From a virus, in the IMG/VR virus record IMGVR_UViG_3300044646_002092, positions 1-64,000 of that record: DNA of 64,000 bases; one strand, 5' to 3'. The translations under genes were made by a program, and so were the position numbers. Positions 2,969 to 35,623 of the stretch are shown here, in pieces. How positions within the stretch are numbered: the stretch's first letter is position 1; each line of letters starts with the position of its first letter. Under the pieces are notes generated by a model that made no database searches, was not told the origin of the DNA, and saw nothing but the letters and a program-made list of their open reading frames with translations.

Positions 2969-3683
2969 CATCGAGCAAAAGCTGCAATCACTACGCAACT
3001 TGAATAGTGAACAGTCCGAAATGCAAAAGATAACGATACATAAACTCAGCAAGACAAGCTGGGTAAATTGGACTGATATTAAACGCGCATATATTCTTGG
3101 CAAGCGTATTGAAGAGTTTGACGAGGAAACTGGGCATACGCGGATTTGGTCTGAGAGCTACAACTTAAAAGAACTTGCAGATGAGTTTGGTGTTGGGGTC
3201 AGTCAGTTAACAAAGAAATCTGCTGTCGAAGGGTGGGGGCAATTACGTGATAGTTACTTGGCGCGAGTACAGGAGGAAGCGCTTGGTACTGAGCTTGGTT
3301 ATTTTACCAACGAGGAGAGCGAGACTGAGGCAAACAGCTTGGCTATCATTCGTAAGGGCATGAAGCTGATTAACTTAGGTCTGGAGCAAGAGTATGGCGA
3401 TTTACTTGAGGCTGTAGACGCTGATGGTGATGTGGACTTGCGCGAATATAGTAAGGTCAACTTGAAGGCGCTGAGTGAGGGAATCAAGGGACTGAAGGCA
3501 CTCCATGAGTTGCATAGTAAGGTGATGGAACAAGCACCCAAAACTAATCAGGAGCTACTAGAGCAACTAAATCGTAGTAAAACGGTCGAGAGACTGAAAA
3601 ATCCTAAAGAGCGTGAGAAATTGCAAAAAGAATTACAGAAGAAATTGGCGCTCCTTAGTCAGATAGAGGAAGATGACGATTAG
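2955..3683 (+). CDS. HTH-containing helical protein, candidate terminase small subunit
   Basis: YNLKELADEFGVGVSQLTKKSAVEGW looks like a TerS-type N-terminal HTH ending in W, followed by helical/coiled-coil segments. Adjacent to terL but on the opposite strand. Confidence 0.45.
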   Translation: MTSNNIEQKLQSLRNLNSEQSEMQKITIHKLSKTSWVNWTDIKRAYILGKRIEEFDEETGHTRIWSESYNLKELADEFGVGVSQLTKKSAVEGWGQLRDSYLARVQEEALGTELGYFTNEESETEANSLAIIRKGMKLINLGLEQEYGDLLEAVDADGDVDLREYSKVNLKALSEGIKGLKALHELHSKVMEQAPKTNQELLEQLNRSKTVERLKNPKEREKLQKELQKKLALLSQIEEDDD

Positions 3684-4718
3684 TCAGTCCAAGGAATAGG
3701 TGTTGGGGGCTTGTCCAGCCTGTCTTGCAGCGTTAGCTTGAGGGTCTGGCACAGTTCTTTTTGCACGTACAGCAGCGATTCTATCGTCCCAATTTTTCTC
3801 GCTAGTAAGTCCTGCTTTATCTGCCCACTTATCAAATCCTTGGTTCTTGCGTCGAAGTTGCCCGTAACCAACAGCAGCAGCACCTCCAGCTACAGTACCA
3901 ATACCCGCACCAGCTACAGAGCCTGTGGCAGTTCTACCTAGTATTTTACCTACTCTTCCTAATGCTGTAGTGCTGTCTTTTTCTTCTTGGGTTTCGCCAG
4001 CGCCTGTACCTCTAGCTAATCCATATAAAGCACCCACACCTAACCCAGTTCTAGCTCCTTGAACAGCACCTACCGCACCAAGATTCGTGAGGCTGAAATT
4101 TGCACCCGACGAACGAGTGGCAGCGAAGTGAGTGAAATGTTGCATCTGTTTTTGTTGTGTGAAGTTTATTCTATTATTGTAGCCTGTCATAAATGGCTTA
4201 CCTAAAGATTTCTTCCAATATAAATTTTTCATTTCTGCTTCGTCATACTTGGTATTCATGTTTTTAATAGCGTCATTGTCAATCAGTTTTACTTGACGCT
4301 TGTTAACGTCGGGTTTTACTATATTGCCTTCATGTATATCTGTATGACCTAGACCTTCTTTTAAAAGACGATTTTGCATACGACCCACTTGACTACCAAG
4401 TTTGTATTGCTCTTTAGAATTAATTCCTTTAAATCTTTTCGGTAATGGTGTACCTGCGTAATTTTGAGTGTAAGAAACCATATTGCCAAGTTCGCGATAG
4501 TTCTGAACTGGAGGTACTAGTCCTGTCGCTCTAGCAGCTTTATCTGCATTATTGTATTCTTTTCTGATTGCATCTACAAAAGCTTCTGGGTACTCTCGCT
4601 CAGGATTCATGTTGTCGATGCGTACTTTGTTTGTAGCAGGGAAATGTAGTACGCGCTTGTCTGGTGTAAGAAGAAGGGCTTTGGCGTTGCGGATTCGGGC
4701 GAAGTCGGTGATGTTCAT
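3684..4718 (-). CDS. Protein-kinase-like (RIO/Kdo/Bud32-like) domain fused to a Gly-zipper module
   Basis: Catalytic loop GLGHTDIHEGNI, metal-binding VKLIDND and upstream TGLVPPV...YAGTPL. The C-terminal half is paralogous to 198..884. Confidence 0.7.
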   Translation of the reverse strand: MNITDFARIRNAKALLLTPDKRVLHFPATNKVRIDNMNPEREYPEAFVDAIRKEYNNADKAARATGLVPPVQNYRELGNMVSYTQNYAGTPLPKRFKGINSKEQYKLGSQVGRMQNRLLKEGLGHTDIHEGNIVKPDVNKRQVKLIDNDAIKNMNTKYDEAEMKNLYWKKSLGKPFMTGYNNRINFTQQKQMQHFTHFAATRSSGANFSLTNLGAVGAVQGARTGLGVGALYGLARGTGAGETQEEKDSTTALGRVGKILGRTATGSVAGAGIGTVAGGAAAVGYGQLRRKNQGFDKWADKAGLTSEKNWDDRIAAVRAKRTVPDPQANAARQAGQAPNTYSLD

Positions 4719-5584: not shown

Positions 5585-6300
5585 GGTTGGTTGTCTTGGT
5601 AAATGATTGTGAAAAAAGCTGTTTTGCAAGTGCCTGATTTTACTATAGACCATCCTGCATCAAGTAAAGTCTCTTTGATATATGGAGTACTTTCTTGTAA
5701 TGGTAGCAAATATGTTTTTAATTCTGGGATAGTAATTTTCCTTGCTTTTTTACGAAGCAGTAAACATTCTGCCTTGGTAAGTATTAACGTTTTTTTATCA
5801 ATTTCGTTCAACTGTTCTAGCTGTACATTCCTCCAGTTGTGAGATTTGATAATAGCCTGAGCCATTGTAGAGTGGTGAATTTCTTTATAACCAAAGTGTT
5901 GTGCAAGATAAAGATGAAGTCGGTCATAACCTTCAGCAACTTGCCTCTTTCCTGTCTGCCCTTTGTAAGATATCTTTAAGTTGTCATCTTCTGAGTCTAT
6001 GAATACTTCAAAGCCAGTTAGTAGTTCAGGGCAGTTGGCAAATTTACCTGCTAGAGCCGCTACACCTATGACTTTGGTGCTTTCTACACTTTGTCTGAGT
6101 TGACGTAACTCTAGGGCAATACTTTCGAGGTTATCCCCCATTTTTACGACCATCAACTGAGAGAATGTGGACATCTTAGCTATTTGCCCCTCGTTTTCCC
6201 AATCACTTAATGTCTTTTGAACTAAAGCTCTATCGGCTGGTATTTTTTCAATAGCGGCAATCAGTTCAGCATCTACTTCGTATACTTTATCTATTTCCAC
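5581..6300 (-). CDS. Putative DNA-binding protein with C-terminal winged helix; paralog of 20417..21064
   Basis: Shared blocks PELLTGF..D.E...K.SYKGQ / PEYLDGF.ID.ESRRVKYCGQ and ITIPEL...LLDAGW / VTIPEI...LDKLGW. Confidence 0.6.
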   Translation of the reverse strand: MEIDKVYEVDAELIAAIEKIPADRALVQKTLSDWENEGQIAKMSTFSQLMVVKMGDNLESIALELRQLRQSVESTKVIGVAALAGKFANCPELLTGFEVFIDSEDDNLKISYKGQTGKRQVAEGYDRLHLYLAQHFGYKEIHHSTMAQAIIKSHNWRNVQLEQLNEIDKKTLILTKAECLLLRKKARKITIPELKTYLLPLQESTPYIKETLLDAGWSIVKSGTCKTAFFTIIYQDNQP

Positions 6301-10100: not shown

Positions 10101-11054
10101 ATGGCTCGTATCAAACGTGTATTCTCTAATGCTTCTGAGTGTATCCACATCTGGGCTAACCGTGTTCAAGATGAAGGTAGAAGCTCTAATGTGTCTTTCA
10201 GGGCTTCTAAGCTGCCTAGTGATATTGGTGATGTTCTGTATTCCTACTCAACTCCCATTGCTGCTTTTCGAGAAAGTGCTAAAGGTCTTGTGGTTATCCT
10301 GAATAATTACAGCTATTCGCACACTACAAGCGGTCATCAAAGCGATATTCGCAGTGCAGTCACACAACAGATTTTTGATTATGACTCTATCCCAAAATGG
10401 GTTAGTCAAGATGTACTTTGCATTGGTAGTGGCAGAGGCGTGGGGCGTTCTAGCCTCGATGATAGACCTCAATATATCAAACCTGAAAGTATCTGGCAAC
10501 AATACCACAACATCTATATCAAGTTGCTTGAAACTGCTTGCTTGCGTAAATTCAGCCGTACAAGTGATGACAGAAAGAACATGGCTTTTCAATACGCTAC
10601 TAAAGCCAATCTCATCAAAGAATATTTCGAGTTGTCTGATGTTGACTGCCCTTTGCTCTCTTTCGAGATTACTGATGAACTACAGGCGGTGCTAGATGCC
10701 GCTAACGCTAAGAAAGCAGAAAAAGAGAGGCTTGCCTTTGAGCGCTCAAAACAAGAACGTCTTGACTGGCTTGCTGGTATCTCACACACATACCCTAACG
10801 CACATACAAACCCTATCGTTCTAAGAGTACATCCTAGCGAAGAGAATCGCGTCCAAACAAGTCGTGGGGCTGTAGTCCCCTTGAAAGTCTGCAAGTCACT
10901 CTATACTGCCTTCAAAAATCAAGCTATGCCCGAAGATACACAAGTTGGCAATTTCACACTGCAAGGTGTATTCGACTGGGGAATTAGAATTGGCTGTCAC
11001 GATATTCAAGCGAAAGAACTTGAGCGCTTTGCTAAGGTAATCGGTATCGCGTAA
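10101..11054 (+). CDS. Conserved-type early phage protein of unknown function
   Basis: 317 aa with the LYSYSTPIA and YSYSHTTSGHQS motifs typical of large-phage early proteins. Confidence 0.7.
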   Translation: MARIKRVFSNASECIHIWANRVQDEGRSSNVSFRASKLPSDIGDVLYSYSTPIAAFRESAKGLVVILNNYSYSHTTSGHQSDIRSAVTQQIFDYDSIPKWVSQDVLCIGSGRGVGRSSLDDRPQYIKPESIWQQYHNIYIKLLETACLRKFSRTSDDRKNMAFQYATKANLIKEYFELSDVDCPLLSFEITDELQAVLDAANAKKAEKERLAFERSKQERLDWLAGISHTYPNAHTNPIVLRVHPSEENRVQTSRGAVVPLKVCKSLYTAFKNQAMPEDTQVGNFTLQGVFDWGIRIGCHDIQAKELERFAKVIGIA

Positions 11055-28025: not shown

Positions 28026-29117
28026 ATGATTAGAGTTCCAGTATTAGACATCGACGGTAATCCGACTATGCCAACTAAAGCCTCAAGAGCTAGACGTTGG
28101 CTACGCGACGGTAAAGCCAAAGTAGTCCACAATGACCTTGGAGTATTCCAAATTCAACTTCTCCAAGAAGCTTCTGGAAATGTTCAACAAGATATTGTTG
28201 TCGGGATTGACCAAGGTAAGCTGTATACGGGGATGGCTATACAGAGTAGTAAAAGTACTTTGTTGATGCTGCATCTTGAGTTACCCCTTCCAGTAGTAGG
28301 TTTTCGTATGAAACAACGTGCAATGCTTCGTAAAACTAGAAGAAGTAGGAGAATAAACAAACGACTAAAATTCAAGTTACGAAATCATAGGCAAAAAAGG
28401 TTCAACAATCCAGCTAGAAAAGAGGGGGTTATTCCCCCATCTATAAACTCTAATAAACAGTTTGAGAGGAGGGTAGTAATTGAATTAAGTAAATTATTTC
28501 CTCTTAGTCATTGTGTTTTTGAATTAGTTAAAGCTAAAGGTAGTAAAAGTTTCAGTCATGTAATGATAGGTCAACGCCAACAAGAAAAATGGTTAAACTC
28601 TATTTTACCAACTATAACTATAGAAGGATGGAAGACCTCTATACTTCGAGATAAATTAGGCTTAGTTAAAAACAAAGCTAACAAATCTATTCAAGAACCT
28701 GCTACTCATGCGATTGACGGTGTAGCCCTTGCTTGTCATCACTTTATTAAGTATGTTGAAGACAAAGTTAATCAGTGTGCTGATTGGTTTGGTGAGGTCA
28801 AAGTTACTAAATCTCAATTTGTTATTGCACGACGACCTAGTTATTCGCGCAGACAGTTATATCAGCTTAACCCTAAAAAACGTGGTAAATATAAGTTGCA
28901 CGGAGGGTCAAGTACACTCAATAATTTCAGAAAGGGTGACATAGTTCTATATACATCCCAAACTAAAACAATTTTGGGATATTGTTCAGGGGCAACATTA
29001 AAAAATAGACTTATATCTATTTCTGATGTAAATTGGCGTGTTATTGGTAAATTTGCTGTCACTAGATGTAAGTTAATATCTCGGTCTTGCGGAATATTGA
29101 TAAAAGTAACTAACTGA
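28026..29117 (+). mobile_element. isrB: IsrB (RRXRR/PLMP + split RuvC, no HNH), IS200/IS605 OMEGA element 1
   Basis: NPTMPT (PLMP), GIDQG (RuvC-I), Arg-rich bridge helix RKTRRSRR, FELV (RuvC-II), THAIDG (RuvC-III); 363 aa. Confidence 0.8.
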
Positions 29118-29170
29118 TAGATACTTATGGGAAGAAGAAGGAAAAAACAGAACATTTTGGAAGGACTAAG

Positions 29171-30214
29171 ATGACTATTGAAATTCCAGACAATTATTAC
29201 TCTTTGAAAGCCAAGATAGATTATCTTCGCGAACGGAAACCTGTAATCGATTTCCCAAAGAAAGTTGCAGTCCCGCACAAACCTATTGATTTCAGTAACC
29301 ATCTTACAGTGGCTGATGCAAGAAAATATGCAGCCTCTCTGCTAGACTATGCAGAAAAAAGAGAAGTCTATGAAAAAGAATATGAAGTTGCTAAAGCGGC
29401 AAACGAAGCTGCACGACCCAAAGCAGCAGCTATAGAAGCGCAGATTGAAGAACTCATTCAAGAAGATGTTGGCTTAACCAAACTCGGATTGTCAGAAAAG
29501 AAGGTTGCAAAGCTCTGGCAAAAAGCTTGGGACGATGCTAACAGCGAAGATGAAGCTATCAGTAATTTGCGCGAACTTGTAGAACTTTTCGAGGATTAAT
29601 ATGACAATTGAATTTCGCAATACTGGTGTCATTTGCATGGTGCATACAGCCAAAGAAGATGAACTTCATTCCATTGATTTAGGAAATTATTTTGTCAAGT
29701 CTGATACGCAAGAGCAAGTACTGATTACCAGTGAGAGCCTTGCCAATCAATATGGACATCTGGTTAAAGTACCAATTTATACTATGAAAGACAAAAATGA
29801 GTACCACCTCCCAATCTGAACCAAAATTTCCACCTGACATCTCTTTTGGTAAATTTGACCAAATCATAGCATTTGAGGCTTATATCATCGATGGTGACAC
29901 TATTCGAGATATGTTGAGTGCGATGGACTGCAAAACCGCATCACAAGCCTACCGACGCGCTAAGCTACTTGAAGTTTTAGAAGGAGATACCAATGAACTT
30001 CGCTAATTTTGCATTGGGTGTGAGAGATATTGTATCAGAGATGACACTATCTGAAGCCGCTAGCTTAGAAGTTGAATTTAGACTGTTTGACCAACTATTA
30101 CCTATTGGCGAGATTCGTGTTGACAGAATCAATAGTAAGGTGTATATCAATGCCTATCCAAGCAAATTAAATACCTCTCCAGATAGACGTACAGAAAAAG
30201 AAGTTGAGTTATAG
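29171..30214 (+). other. Hypothetical CDSs 29171..29599, 29601..29819, 29797..30006, 29993..30214
   Basis: Packed co-oriented ORFs. Confidence 0.65.
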
Positions 30215-30222
30215 TAATAAAT

Positions 30223-30980
30223 GTGAGGGAGATATAGTGCAGATGGAAACTCTTGCTCAATCATTGAATAATGATTGATGGCGCAACATAAACGTTAAGA
30301 CGCACTCCCACAATAATGTTTAGTAAGTCGGAGGTGTATCTTCAAACAAACTAAACAACTGGATGGCGGTGAATAGGCAATAAACCGCAGGAACACGTAG
30401 AGGTCATCGGCGTTTTCGCTCATTAACTCCTCATAACGAGCTACTAATGTCCAGCACTATTCCAATCTTATGTGGCTGAGGACGGTTGAAAGCTGAACCC
30501 GAATAAGTAAGGGCATGACTGACTAATTGACACCCCTGAAGTCAGATATTCGATAGGGTGGTCATCAAAGGTTCAAATCCTTTCATAAGCGTTTCGGGGA
30601 ATATCGTAAATTCCTTATACACGAAAGCAAAGAGGTTGTGGTCTTAGGATTTCCCTCTTTGCAATCTGGATATTCGAGGAATAGTCAATACTCGATTTGT
30701 GGGTTCGTTCCTGCTAACCCCAGCCGTAACTTGAGCCTAAGTAATCAAGCCCTGCGAAGTTGGGTCTAGGACAGGGCTATCCAGCCATATCATCGTTTCG
30801 GAGGGTATCGTAAACCCTCTGCACCTCACCTTAGTATAAGCTCTTGCTCCGTCTTAGGATTAGCTGGGATTTGATGCCCAAAGCGAGTTGCCTTGTCAGT
30901 ATGGTCAATCTTATTAAGGTGTACAGCACCTTGCGAGATAATTTCAAACTGAAGCGCCCCTTGAACTTAGGTTAGGGGTA
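30223..30980 (+). ncRNA. Cluster of structured non-coding RNA elements (~750 nt)
   Basis: No long ORF; many perfect stems, a tRNA-like unit, two cloverleaves and a duplicated covarying hairpin; ends in a GCCCC/GGGGT hairpin at 30956-30985. Confidence 0.7.
30466..30591 (+). ncRNA. tRNA-like RNA with a replaced/extended anticodon arm (not a decoding tRNA)
   Basis: Acceptor CTTATG/CATAAG, D-arm GCTGAGGACGGTTGAAAGC, perfect T-arm AAAGG-TTCAAAT-CCTTT; a ~65 nt nested stem replaces the anticodon loop. Confidence 0.6.
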
Positions 30981-31001
30981 TTTTCATATCTAAAATAATC
31001 A

Positions 31002-31571
31002 ATGAAAAATATTGCAATAGGAAACATCCCGAAACATAAATATGTCTGGGTAGACACCAATTTCACTCATAAGCAATTCATAGGTTATATTCCTGCTGTT
31101 TGGTTTGCACTCAATAGCGTTGCTGGTCGAAGTTGGGGTTTGCATGTTATGTTGGAGTGCGGCGCAGTTTTTCGGAACTTACCACCCCACGCAATACTTT
31201 TTGAAGACCCGTTATCATTTACCGCTAACCTTTGGGACATTAGACAAGCTCAGCGTTGGGATTGCTACAGCCAAAATTGGAGTGCAATCGAATATAGGTA
31301 TCTAGCCAATTTACGATGCAAGGTAGCTATTGACCCTGAAATAGCCTTTCTAGGAACTTACCTCTTTTCTGTCTGCCCTCTGGATGACGGGTTCACAGAT
31401 TATCCTGACCAAGCCAAAGAGTTCATATTCATCCAACTTGATAACGGAAGATTAACAATTCAACCAACAAATTACGTTTTGTTCAAGGAAAACAGTTTTA
31501 CAACCAATGATGAACTATTATTCCCTAAAGACTTAAAAGTAAGCGACTTAATTTACTCATCGGAGAAGTAG
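31002..31571 (+). CDS. Conserved-type phage protein of unknown function
   Basis: 189 aa with GRSWGLHVMLECGAVFRNLPPHA and AQRWDCYS motifs. Confidence 0.7.
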   Translation: MKNIAIGNIPKHKYVWVDTNFTHKQFIGYIPAVWFALNSVAGRSWGLHVMLECGAVFRNLPPHAILFEDPLSFTANLWDIRQAQRWDCYSQNWSAIEYRYLANLRCKVAIDPEIAFLGTYLFSVCPLDDGFTDYPDQAKEFIFIQLDNGRLTIQPTNYVLFKENSFTTNDELLFPKDLKVSDLIYSSEK

Positions 31572-31748
31572 TATGGATGACCATTATGATGCTCAAGTCT
31601 ATTCCCTAGCTTCAGGCTGGCTTCAAGACCGTTTCGCTGAAGATTACGTTTATTCAACTAAATATTCAGCTAGGTTACTTCCATTTATAATTTGTTTGCA
31701 ACAAATCGTTTTGGCATTGCTTGCTGACCCCAACTATCAGGAGGACTT

Positions 31749-33510
31749 TTGATTATGGCACGACTAACTAACAGCAAGGACGTATACCTGCCTTACAAAT
31801 CGACTGACCAAATTGCGCGTGAAGCTGTCGAAGCCCACGAAGCACGTTTTACTCAATCGGGCTGGCAACTTGCCAAAATCATTATTCCTATTGCATTTTT
31901 GGTATTGTTGGTCAACGACATTATTTTGATTCAGGTGTTGTAATGGAAATCGAAACTATTGTTGAGCAGTTTTTAGCTTCGTCTTCTAAGAGTAAGGTTG
32001 AAGTTGCCAAGTATCTTCAGTTCGTATATGACAGTGGCTTTAATAAAGGTATCTCTGCCGCCCACTCTCTAGCGGAAGAATGTTCTGTACCTGACTCTTA
32101 CTCACAGCCTTGCGTCGATGATTTAGCCGTAGAGATTGCTGACTTGAAACGGAAGATTTAATCATGTACCAAATACAATTCTTTTCTGCCAAGCATAATC
32201 GGTGGTTTTTAATGTGGCATCATGGGGAAGAAAGTCTTGCTAGGATGGTTAGATTTTTTGAAGTTATGTGTAATCTCGAACCTCGACTCAAACGTCGCAT
32301 TATCGACTTAAACACTGGTGCAATCGTCTATACCTAACTTTAGACAGATGCACCAAACATCTACATCCCCTAGACTTATAAAACAAAGTAAAACAACAAA
32401 CACACATGGCAACAGCTAAAACCAAGTCCGATAATACCGACGTAGTTATTTCTTCAGCAGCAGCAGCGCTTGTTAAGGCGACCGCAAGTATCCAAGAAGC
32501 GTTTAAGTCTATTGATGGATTGAATGAAACATCAGAAACCCTTACTCGCGATATCGCATCAAAGAAAGCTGAAGTTGCAAGTCTGGATGAGCAGTATCAA
32601 ACCAAGGCTCGACAAGCGGAAGTTGATTTCAATTTGAAGCTTCAAGAAACGAAGGATAAGACTGTTACCGAATACCTTAAGTCAGTTGGTAAGGAAGCAG
32701 TTGACACCTCTATCTACAGGGCGTTACAAAATGAATTGACCAAAGTTGTTGCTGAACGTGATGCAGAAGTCAAGAAGGCAGTTGCAATCGAGAATAGTCG
32801 CTTGACTCGCGATTTCAACTCTGAGAAAGCGCTACTTCAAAGCCAGTTTGAAACTTCTACTGCCAAGCAACTCGCTCAAATTGAATCTCTCACCGAACGT
32901 AATGGCGCACTCAGCAATGAAATCGCTAAGCTGTTCAAGGAAATCGAAGCTCAACGTGCATTGACTGCGGAAGTCGCTAAGGCTGGCTCAGTTGGTTCTA
33001 TTAACGTTGGCACTCCTAATAACCGTTAAGTTTCACGACTGATTTGGTACACACTATACGGCTCCTTCGGGAGCCTTTTTATTAACATGAACAAAGCACT
33101 ATTTAACAAAATCCAAGAACGCTACCTCGCTAAGATTGCAGAAAAGAATAGTTGGGGTAAGAATGAAATCAAACAGTTGTGGCAAGCTACGGTATCTGAA
33201 GTATTGGTCGAGAATTTGACTGATGAATGACACTATCAATAAAATCGCTTCGCTCATGGCAGAAGAAGAGTTTGCATGGAAAGAATCTCAGATAATGCAA
33301 ACTATGTTAAGTGAGAATGTATCTTTGCCAGAGGAGTTAAGTAAACTTGGCTGGGGTTTTGGTCTAAAACAAGATTCTGGGCAGTGGAACGTACTTACTT
33401 GGGGTAAATTTACGTCTTGCAACTTTGTCGAGGAGTCGCGGTTTGAGTCAAAGGTAAAACAAGAGTTTGAGGCTATTTGTAAAGAGGCTATGCAGAGGGA
33501 ATTAAGTTAA
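31749..33510 (+). other. Hypothetical CDSs 31749..31943, 31943..32161, 32406..33029 (coiled coil, 207 aa), 33223..33510
   Basis: Co-oriented ORFs; heptad pattern in 32406..33029. Confidence 0.65.
33060..33080 (+). terminator. Intrinsic terminator
   Basis: GGCTCC-TTCG-GGAGCC followed by TTTTT. Confidence 0.85.
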
Positions 33511-34130
33511 TGTTGAAAAATTTTGAAGTTGAGTGGAATAATATAGAGGATTTATCTAAATTACATAAAATTATAAAAGCGAGAATTTGCTCTTTAAAAT
33601 CCGATGGAGCTACTTTTGCTAGTAAGGAAGAAAAAAGGAAAATGATTCTAGATTGTTGTTTTTCAATTTATGAAGCAAATCTAGACCATATATTTGTAAA
33701 AGACAAAGATGCGGCAAGTAATTATTATATCTACGCACATTGCAACCCACTACAGGAATTAGATGCTATTTGCAAAGCTAAACCTGCTTTTGCGGCTACA
33801 TTAGGCTTAAATTTTGTTCCTTTCTATGTTGGAAAAGGTACGGGAGATAGAGCTTATAAACTAGAGCGTAATGAGACTTATAGGAAAGTCATGCAATTAC
33901 TAAATGCTAGAAATTTAAAACCAGACATAAAAATAGTCTCTAATAACTTACAAGAAGCTAAAGCATTAGAATTGGAAGCTAAATTAATAGATATTTTTGG
34001 TCTACAAATTTACGGTGGTTGGTTGACAAATTTAGATGAAGGTCACGACTCTAAGTTAAGAAGGCAGAGGTATGCTAAAGAGTTTAGTGTATTAAATCAA
34101 AAACGTTTTCAATTGTTCTCGGATAATTAA
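33510..34130 (+). CDS. GIY-YIG (LEM-3-like) endonuclease, probably homing
   Basis: YYIYAH...FYVGKGTGDRA...EAKALELEAKLIDIFG...LTN. Confidence 0.75.
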   Translation: MLKNFEVEWNNIEDLSKLHKIIKARICSLKSDGATFASKEEKRKMILDCCFSIYEANLDHIFVKDKDAASNYYIYAHCNPLQELDAICKAKPAFAATLGLNFVPFYVGKGTGDRAYKLERNETYRKVMQLLNARNLKPDIKIVSNNLQEAKALELEAKLIDIFGLQIYGGWLTNLDEGHDSKLRRQRYAKEFSVLNQKRFQLFSDN

Positions 34131-34149
34131 TTTCTACACCACAATACGC

Positions 34150-34185
34150 AAAAAGGAGATGCACATAATACATCTCCTTTTCTTT
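34150..34185. terminator. Bidirectional intrinsic terminator
   Basis: AAAAAGGAGATG-loop-CATCTCCTTTT, followed by further T residues. Confidence 0.75.
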
Positions 34186-34426
34186 ACGCTACTACCAAGC
34201 TAGATTTGCGGGTAAAAGCTACAATTGAGTTTTTGCCATTTGTTTTCTTGTCCCATAGTCCTTACTCATAAAGTAAAAACAGTGATAACTCTTACTAAAA
34301 CGTCGATACCTTTATATGCCCTTGTAGTGGGGCTTGATAGTAGTTAATGGACATAGCATTAATCGAAAATGCGTCCGCCTTAGTTCAACGAAATCTTTCA
34401 AGACATATTAATATTAACATAACACT

Positions 34427-35623
34427 ATGAAAAAAGCTTGCGGTTTCCGCTTCCAAGGTCACTACGTCTACCGTCAATATTTTGAAGAGCATGGCAGATA
34501 CAAAATCATGGTGTGGGTCGCCTCTAATCCTCCAGAAGAAGAATTGTGCGCTGATGTTGCCTTCTGCGGTGACTCTCACAACGAATGTATGGACAAACTC
34601 AAGCAATGGCTTGAAATCAATAACGATTGGGTAAACAAAACAGATGCCTAACACTAAATTTGAACTACCCGAAGACTTGAAAGAGATTACAGATTTCGGG
34701 TTTCAAGTCTTCCCAGAAAACGTTGTAGTTTATCCTCCTGATGTGTTGGTATTAACTTTAAATCACTACCCTTTAGAGGCTGTAGCTAAGTTATTTTCCT
34801 CTTTACAGACCACACAAATAAGATACTACGACATCACTTTTGACGGTGCATATCAAACTAAACTGAATCCAGATGGAACAATTACTTGCAGCCCTTACTG
34901 CACGGAAATTAACGGAAAGGAAATAGGCAGAACTCCTGTGAAACTAAAAATTCTGAAAGAGTTTAAATCAATACAATGGAAAGAAACAAATGGCAACACT
35001 TAAAAACCTCAAACCAGACCAAATTCTTTACAAGGTCAGAAAAGAAAAGGCTGGTCGTACAACAATGACTCGTCAAGTACTCGATACCATTCGTATTATC
35101 AGTGTAGACCTCGAAAATGAGAAGGTGGTGGCTAGTTATCGTGGCAGGAAGGGAAACTATCGCGATTGGCAACTCAAGTCTTGGCGAGTTAAAGAACCTC
35201 AAGTAAAGAGTCGTGATATACTCGGAAACCCTCGATACTAATCCTCCTCACGATAGATGACCTGCCCCGACCATCACGCTATTATTTATAAGCAATCAAG
35301 CAAATAACTAAAAACACATGAATCCTGATACCGCAGTTGCTTACGAACCCGAAGTTGCACAACAAGTATTGGCAGCAATCGAAGAAGTTGAGCCAGTTAC
35401 CGAAGAGCCAGAATTTATCTCGAACGAAGACTATCGTGAATTGTTGGCGCTTGCTATCAATGATGCTGAAGTTTGGGTTTCTCAAGCTGAAAGTCTCATC
35501 AACAAGATTGACAATGGCGAAAAAATCAAAGGGACGAAACTAAACGGCGCTGTTCGTAATGGTCGTCTCGAAATTCTTCGCTCTTCACTAACCGACGTAA
35601 AGACTGCCAAAGTAAGCGGCTAA
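34427..35623 (+). other. Hypothetical CDSs 34427..34651, 34644..35003, 34990..35241, 35318..35623
   Basis: Packed co-oriented ORFs. Confidence 0.65.

Follow-up and report, generated by a model that had tools for sequence, protein, structure and literature searches.

GOLLD and ROOL are large, abundant phage RNAs that still have no function and whose link to tRNAs is unexplained. GOLLD RNAs carry tRNAs covalently embedded in a linker, and ROOL RNAs are associated with tRNA islands (Kretsch et al., bioRxiv 10.1101/2024.12.08.627333; Weinberg et al. 2017, PMC5737381). The YrlA RNA of M. smegmatis contains a tRNA-like domain with a 7-base-pair (bp) acceptor that is cut by RNase P and CCA-tailed in vivo (PMC4201824). 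Here we describe a tRNA-like element in the virus record IMGVR_UViG_3300044646_002092, which comprises 116,444 bases and is ~80% complete. Its first 64 kb form the stretch analysed, referred to as the window, and the closest named relatives found by BLAST against phage records are the Pseudanabaena phages PA-SR01 and Pam2. The element spans 30466-30591 (all features are on the + strand unless stated) and lies in a 787-base gap, 30215-31001, which is free of open reading frames (ORFs; none exceeds 43 aa) on a strand otherwise densely packed with genes. We found that the element is an internal, unspliced module of a discrete and abundant phage non-coding RNA of ~730 bases and not a free-standing gene.

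The outer parts of the element read as a tRNA of the serine type. The acceptor 5' strand (30466-30472) pairs with 30584-30590; six of the seven pairs are formed, and position 1:72 is a U:C mismatch. Pair 3:70 is U:A, which leaves the element without G3:U70, and the discriminator base is a G (G73, 30591) with no CCA encoded after it. The D-arm (30475-30493) is of the serine-type class II kind: its stem has 3 bp, G13 stands opposite A22, and A14, G18G19 and A21 are in place. In the T-arm (30567-30583), a perfect 5-bp stem carries a consensus seven-base loop (30572-30578). The bases of the tRNA elbow are all there, namely U8, A14, G18G19, the G15:C48 Levitt pair (C48 at 30566), G53:C61 and U54/A58. 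ARAGORN in intron mode called 30466-30591 exactly and gave no matches when the 116-kb genome was Markov-shuffled 20 times; in default mode it did not call the element. A looser scan for the bare shell, that is a T-arm and an acceptor at any spacing, found about one per shuffled genome, and the significance of the element therefore rests on the serine-type D-arm and the invariant bases. The Rfam tRNA model (RF00005) gave no match to the element at window scale and otherwise only a local match to the T-arm (13.5 bits, E 2.8, against a gathering score of 29), not a full-length one. At the gathering score and at E up to 10, Rfam gave no match of the element to transfer-messenger RNA (tmRNA), ribozyme, intron, Y RNA, GOLLD, ROOL or HEARO families.

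The centre of the element differs from the shell. Across its ~52 positions the shell shows one defect, while in the 74-base centre an anticodon arm cannot be recognised, and no hairpin with a 5-bp stem, a seven-base loop, U33 and a purine at 37 was found in 30494-30566. We compared folds with the tRNA shell imposed, using pairing probabilities and z-scores against shuffled sequences. A class II fold reached -17.4 kcal/mol, compared to -10.5 kcal/mol for a model with three nested stems, and was also the minimum of the unconstrained folding. In this predicted fold, a stub at the anticodon position (30498-30513; a 3-bp stem, 30498-30500/30511-30513, with a 10-base loop and pair probabilities of ~0.54) is followed by one base, an oversized variable arm of 51 bases (30515-30565), one further base (C48) and the T-arm. 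The 6-bp basal helix of the predicted variable arm abuts C48 and has a pair probability of ~0.18. As far as the folding model goes, the centre is better read as that of a tRNA-Ser whose variable arm is oversized. Since no fold contains a canonical anticodon arm, the element cannot decode.

These results bear on the original prediction, which was made from the DNA sequence before this analysis. Its description of a tRNA look-alike with a perfect T-arm, a Ser/Leu-like D-arm and a 6-bp acceptor with a 1:72 mismatch, lacking an encoded CCA and G3:U70, holds on direct reading, and the intron-mode call agrees with it. It had also placed a 65-nt domain at the anticodon position; the absence of an anticodon arm stands, and the domain itself is better described as the predicted stub plus variable arm. 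The three nested stems that it drew in this domain (30497-30500/30556-30559, 30501-30505/30547-30551 and 30519-30524/30540-30545) are indeed complementary, but their pairing probability is ~0 and their energy is the inferior one given above. Its suggestion of a decoy for anticodon nucleases falls, as such enzymes read the anticodon loop and none is present.

The gap was found in 20 public sequencing runs, six of which are RNA libraries. Four RNA runs from four studies were examined as contigs, which show no strand, ends, levels or processed products. Each run held a single contig of 726-802 bases, starting at 30229 or 30232 and ending at 30957 or 30959 (in one case at 31030), with no mismatches, gaps or joints relative to the window. 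The flanking coding DNA (29800-30228 and 31031-31400) had zero cover by RNA contigs. DNA contamination would also cover the flanks; the contigs therefore represent RNA, at an abundance far above that of the neighbouring mRNAs. The assembly of this RNA on its own from the metatranscriptomes of several studies suggests that it is among the most abundant products of the virus in nature. The contig limits place the RNA at 30229-30959, and its true ends probably lie a few bases outside. Its strand is taken as + from the orientation of the tRNA-like module and of a terminator-like hairpin found by sequence scan (30958-30978, with a T-rich tail, 30958-30988), at the start of which three of the contigs stop (30957-30959). 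A putative -10 hexamer (30210-30215) sits ~15 bases upstream of the contig starts, in a conserved block that heads the gap in PA-SR01, Pam2 and the related locus L028; a scan for a two-hexamer consensus did not pick it up.

The same contigs speak to the idea that the element is a working tRNA with a spliced-out insert. ARAGORN can force a 79-base tRNA with the anticodon tca by removing 47 bases. However, this solution gives up the D-arm of serine type together with G18G19, its anticodon stem is mismatched, and its "intron" falls at 29/30 instead of 37/38. A group I intron would be far longer than this insert, no ribozyme family matches it, and the phage reads normally under code 11. A spliced canonical tRNA was looked for, and no joint or spliced form was seen in the four RNA assemblies, although this is weak evidence as contigs would miss a short product. 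Given the poor ARAGORN solution and the uninterrupted RNA contigs, we rejected this explanation, which we hold to be barely credible.

To place the RNA in context, we compared it with the same gap in other genomes. A gene of 189 aa lies downstream of the gap, and the same arrangement is found in PA-SR01, in Pam2 and in eight metagenomic loci (on six viral and two metagenome contigs; individual loci are given L numbers). The gap is a mosaic of modules. A conserved structured unit A (30359-30454) is common to PA-SR01, L027 and L028, and a conserved structured unit B (30666-30784) is present in 10 of the 10 family loci. The two units are paralogous, sharing an opening helix and a hairpin loop motif, and form the conserved core. 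In unit B, compensatory changes were found at 10 of the 22 predicted pairs across eight sequences. Repeat module 1 (30590-30614), directly after the tRNA-like module, is a paralogue of a module that follows unit B (30794-30818); both have the same flank and loop, and the swapped stem still pairs. The acceptor 3' strand (30584-30589) could alternatively pair with 30614-30619 and so enclose the repeat module 1 hairpin, which may be chance. The gap of the window matched no Rfam family, and over 28500-35500 the RNA had no match to GOLLD (RF01998) or ROOL (RF03087) in Rfam 15 at E up to 10. A metagenome scan with the unit B motif returned 16 stretches, two of them family members and the others apparently chance matches. 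On these sequence comparisons, the host RNA is an unannotated structured family of Pseudanabaena-type cyanophages, supported by covariation. Published descriptions of PA-SR01 and the Pan phages mention ordinary tRNAs only and are silent on this gap.

One short motif may link the centre of the element to the rest of the RNA. The loop of the predicted stub (30501-30510) ends in the same 7-base word as a hairpin loop of unit B (30735-30744), and most of this word recurs in a hairpin loop of Pam2 (L002, ~2715-2730). The 6-base core of the word occurs twice in the gap compared to 0.4 expected copies. A role as a common tertiary or binding motif is possible.

tRNAs or tRNA-shaped units were found in the gap of seven of the 10 family loci. 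The gap of L045 holds a tRNA-Lys and a tRNA-Met, and that of L025 a tRNA-Met together with a 73-base tRNA-like unit (3270-3342) whose anticodon loop has six bases. In the gap of L028 there is a shell of the leucine type (10583-10703), which has A73 and surrounds a non-canonical centre of 70 bases. Further tRNA shells occur in Pam2, L023 and L026, those of L023 (~3880-3996, - strand) and L026 having two T-arms. The shell scan found no tRNA-shaped unit in the gaps of PA-SR01 and L006. In L025, L028, L023 and L026 the unit fills one slot between conserved flanks, and the units in this slot differ in their acceptor and T-stem sequences yet keep the pairing. The serine-type unit of the window is placed elsewhere, in the linker between units A and B. 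In its first 250 bases, the gap of L028 is 95% identical to that of the window, yet the A-B linker of L028 is ~10 bases long compared to ~210 in the window. The extra stretch of linker in the window starts ~10 bases before the 5' end of the module and also holds the duplicate hairpin module at 30590-30614.

No homologue of the element itself was found beyond three other contigs, which are 99.6-100% identical over the gap. There was no copy in the syntenic gaps of nine relatives, in the whole genomes of five relatives (including PA-SR01 and Pam2) or in 301 cyanobacterial genomes, and BLAST against phage records returned flanking modules only and no homologue of the element. We also scanned IMG/VR for the serine D-loop word followed by a distant T-loop. 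The combination proved rare, with 13 stretches, three of them from this phage, and beyond the identical copies it yielded four serine-type look-alikes in unrelated phages (L010 13041-13167, L018 6050-6170 and L020 5374-5491, all on the - strand, and L021 8362-8482, + strand), the centres of which are not alignable to that of the element. These look-alikes are 118-127 bases long, with perfect acceptors, non-canonical anticodon loops and variable regions of 45-50 bases; that of L020 heads a tRNA array.

We tentatively favour the reading in which the element serves a large phage RNA as a tRNA-shaped, non-decoding but functional module that tRNA enzymes recognise; in the simplest case it would be an RNase P/Z site at which the RNA is divided or its end marked. 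We put the probability of this reading at roughly 0.45. Several observations argue for it. The shell and the bases of the tertiary contacts are intact while the centre is non-canonical, and ARAGORN finds no such element in the shuffled genomes; the module lies unspliced inside RNA contigs from four studies; the host RNA is a covarying family in which most loci hold tRNAs or tRNA-shaped units, with acceptor and T-stems that vary yet keep pairing; the module sits in the A-B linker, which is far longer here than in L028; and the tRNAs of GOLLD linkers and the processing of M. smegmatis YrlA by RNase P and CCA addition offer parallels. We infer all of the functional steps. The module would descend from a class II (serine-type) tRNA that kept its acceptor helix, T-arm, D-arm, elbow contacts and G73 but lost the arm that reads the codon. 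Built into the linker between units A and B of the ~730-base RNA, its tRNA shape would serve as a handle for the host machinery that recognises tRNAs. Cleavage would be by RNase P at 30465/30466 and, after 30591, by RNase Z or a different 3' nuclease, yielding a 5' part made of the 5' domain and unit A and a 3' part made of unit B and the 3' domain. Alternatively, a tRNA-like end might be left that receives CCA. A punctuation mark for RNase P/Z, as also suggested in the original prediction, is plausible; within the one transcript, the element has a conserved structured unit on either side.

Several points weigh against this reading. The acceptor has only six pairs, with the mismatch at 1:72. 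Neither fold of the element beats shuffled sequence in stability (z +0.9 and -0.5). The element is confined to one lineage, so there is no evidence of purifying selection on it. The RNA contigs cross both proposed cleavage sites, and uncut RNA therefore certainly exists. Finally, PA-SR01 and L006 lack a tRNA-shaped unit by the shell scan, and the host RNA therefore does not need one.

The main rival to a functional module, which we hold to be somewhat less probable, is a passenger pseudogene. In that case, a phage tRNA-Ser in a tRNA-rich locus, where tRNA units come and go, would have had its anticodon and variable region wrecked recently by one insertion or recombination and would be co-transcribed without a role. 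The restriction to a lineage with no diverged homologue found, the 1:72 mismatch and the missing thermodynamic signal are consistent with such a young pseudogene; the same gap in relatives looks like a landing site for tRNAs with changing units, and an intact shell is expected if the event was recent. Set against this are the concentration of change in the centre, with the shell spared but for one defect, and the presence of tRNA-shaped units without a normal anticodon loop in three different relatives. The 7-base loop word common to the stub and unit B, most of which is also in Pam2, is a further hint, in this case of a centre that has become part of the host RNA.

A functional module might instead act in trans. 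As a decoy or sponge, free or tethered, it could bind a host factor or a defence enzyme that reads the acceptor end, the elbow or the variable arm, with seryl-tRNA synthetase (SerRS) or toxins that modify tRNA 3' ends as candidates. The RNA is very abundant, and the element combines a serine-type D-arm, G73 and a long predicted variable arm. These are the features used by SerRS, which ignores the anticodon. But the 1:72 mismatch and the AU-rich acceptor are unlike the host tRNA-Ser, no CCA is encoded, and binding or charging is a step that we infer; we consider the sponge, together with its candidate targets, improbable. It is what survives of the decoy proposed in the original prediction. In a bolder and still less probable version, the module would be processed to a CCA end and aminoacylated. 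Serine would be the likeliest amino acid, because SerRS reads G73 and the variable arm and not the anticodon. The abundant RNA, or a half released from it, would then expose an active aminoacyl-tRNA-like end able to dock on EF-Tu, ribosomes or SerRS. If true, the principle of tmRNA would recur with another amino-acid identity, inside a new family of large phage RNAs.

The surroundings of the gap were also examined. The six ordinary tRNA genes found by ARAGORN across the record cluster at 92741-93417, away from the gap. Pfam and PHROGs gave no RNA-binding partner among the proteins neighbouring the gap. A 363-aa protein (28026-29117), encoded 1.1 kb upstream of the RNA, contains an RRXRR domain as in the IscB/IsrB family; an HNH domain was not matched. 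The copy of the gap in L027 has a sub-threshold match to HEARO (omega-RNA) at 6051-6230 (44.6 bits versus 83). ARAGORN also called a permuted two-piece tmRNA with a tag peptide at 34093-34437 on the - strand, opposite to every neighbouring gene; it matches Rfam RF04321 at 51.6 bits (gathering score 47) and, in part, a cyanobacterial tmRNA model.

Among described systems, YrlA-type Y RNAs (Chen et al. 2014, PMC4201824) resemble the element in being non-decoding mimics that retain the D-arm, T-arm, acceptor and Levitt pair. In YrlA, however, a loop caps the acceptor, and the termini of the RNA lie in a stem at the anticodon position that binds Ro60, whereas in the element the acceptor is open and the centre closed. 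A further candidate is a module of the Y-RNA kind, bound by Ro60 (Rsr) of the host. The pattern scan that found the serine-type look-alikes also matched cyanobacterial chromosomes, where it brought out tRNA-like arrays (L086 3766-5108, - strand; L090 99-622, + strand; L081 923-1234, - strand). Their units of 120-136 bases are matched end to end by the Rfam tRNA model, with insertions of 54-71 bases, and Ro60/Rsr genes adjoin two of the three array loci (L086 and L090). Acceptor strands are similar in most units of an array, and the D-arm types differ. The arrays are probably Y RNAs in tandem, readable in two registers, at loci of the Y-RNA type described by Chen et al. 2014, so that cyanobacteria do employ a design of this general sort for Y RNAs. 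Their strongly conserved central domain is absent from the element of the window, which ends at the acceptor and not in a Ro-binding stem. A search of the 116-kb record, ~80% complete, for TROVE (Ro60) at E up to 1 gave no match while the positive controls matched, and no Y-RNA family was among the Rfam matches. We rejected membership of the Y RNAs on the topology (D-arm then T-arm, with an open acceptor), the TROVE result and the unshared central domain, in line with the earlier view that the element is not of the YrlA type, and Ro60 binding appears highly improbable.

Like the element, tmRNA, including the phage's own (34093-34437), combines an acceptor and a T-arm that are tRNA-like with a large insert that is not tRNA. 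The element differs in having a full D-arm and in lacking G3:U70 and a tag reading frame, and over 30101-31100 neither ARAGORN in tmRNA mode nor Rfam found a tmRNA, which agrees with its having been set apart from tmRNA at the outset. With class II tRNA-Ser, the element shares the D-arm type, G73 and, in the favoured fold, one base on either side of the variable arm, although the variable arm is a predicted feature. In contrast to tRNA-Ser, it has a predicted anticodon arm of 3 bp with a 10-base loop, a variable arm of 51 instead of ~13-21 bases, the 1:72 mismatch and an Rfam tRNA score below threshold. The rnaC and rnaD species of phage T4 are reportedly stable, free-standing RNAs of ~120-140 bases from a tRNA cluster, of unknown function, co-transcribed with tRNAs and matured by tRNA-processing enzymes; a literature search for them found nothing.

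The closest analogues are GOLLD and ROOL, which are likewise phage-encoded, several hundred bases long, highly abundant and built of multiple domains. As in GOLLD, a tRNA-shaped unit is covalently part of a variable linker between conserved domains, and relatives of the locus sit with real tRNAs. They differ in that the host RNA matches neither of them in Rfam 15 and that the embedded unit is not a working tRNA. The relation to GOLLD and ROOL is a working resemblance and not membership. The locus offers a third, unrelated RNA family, in freshwater cyanophages whose relatives PA-SR01 and Pam2 are cultured isolates, and its natural variants, which carry serine-type or leucine-type units, a shortened anticodon loop, real tRNAs or none, make the role of the tRNA shape in such RNAs directly testable.
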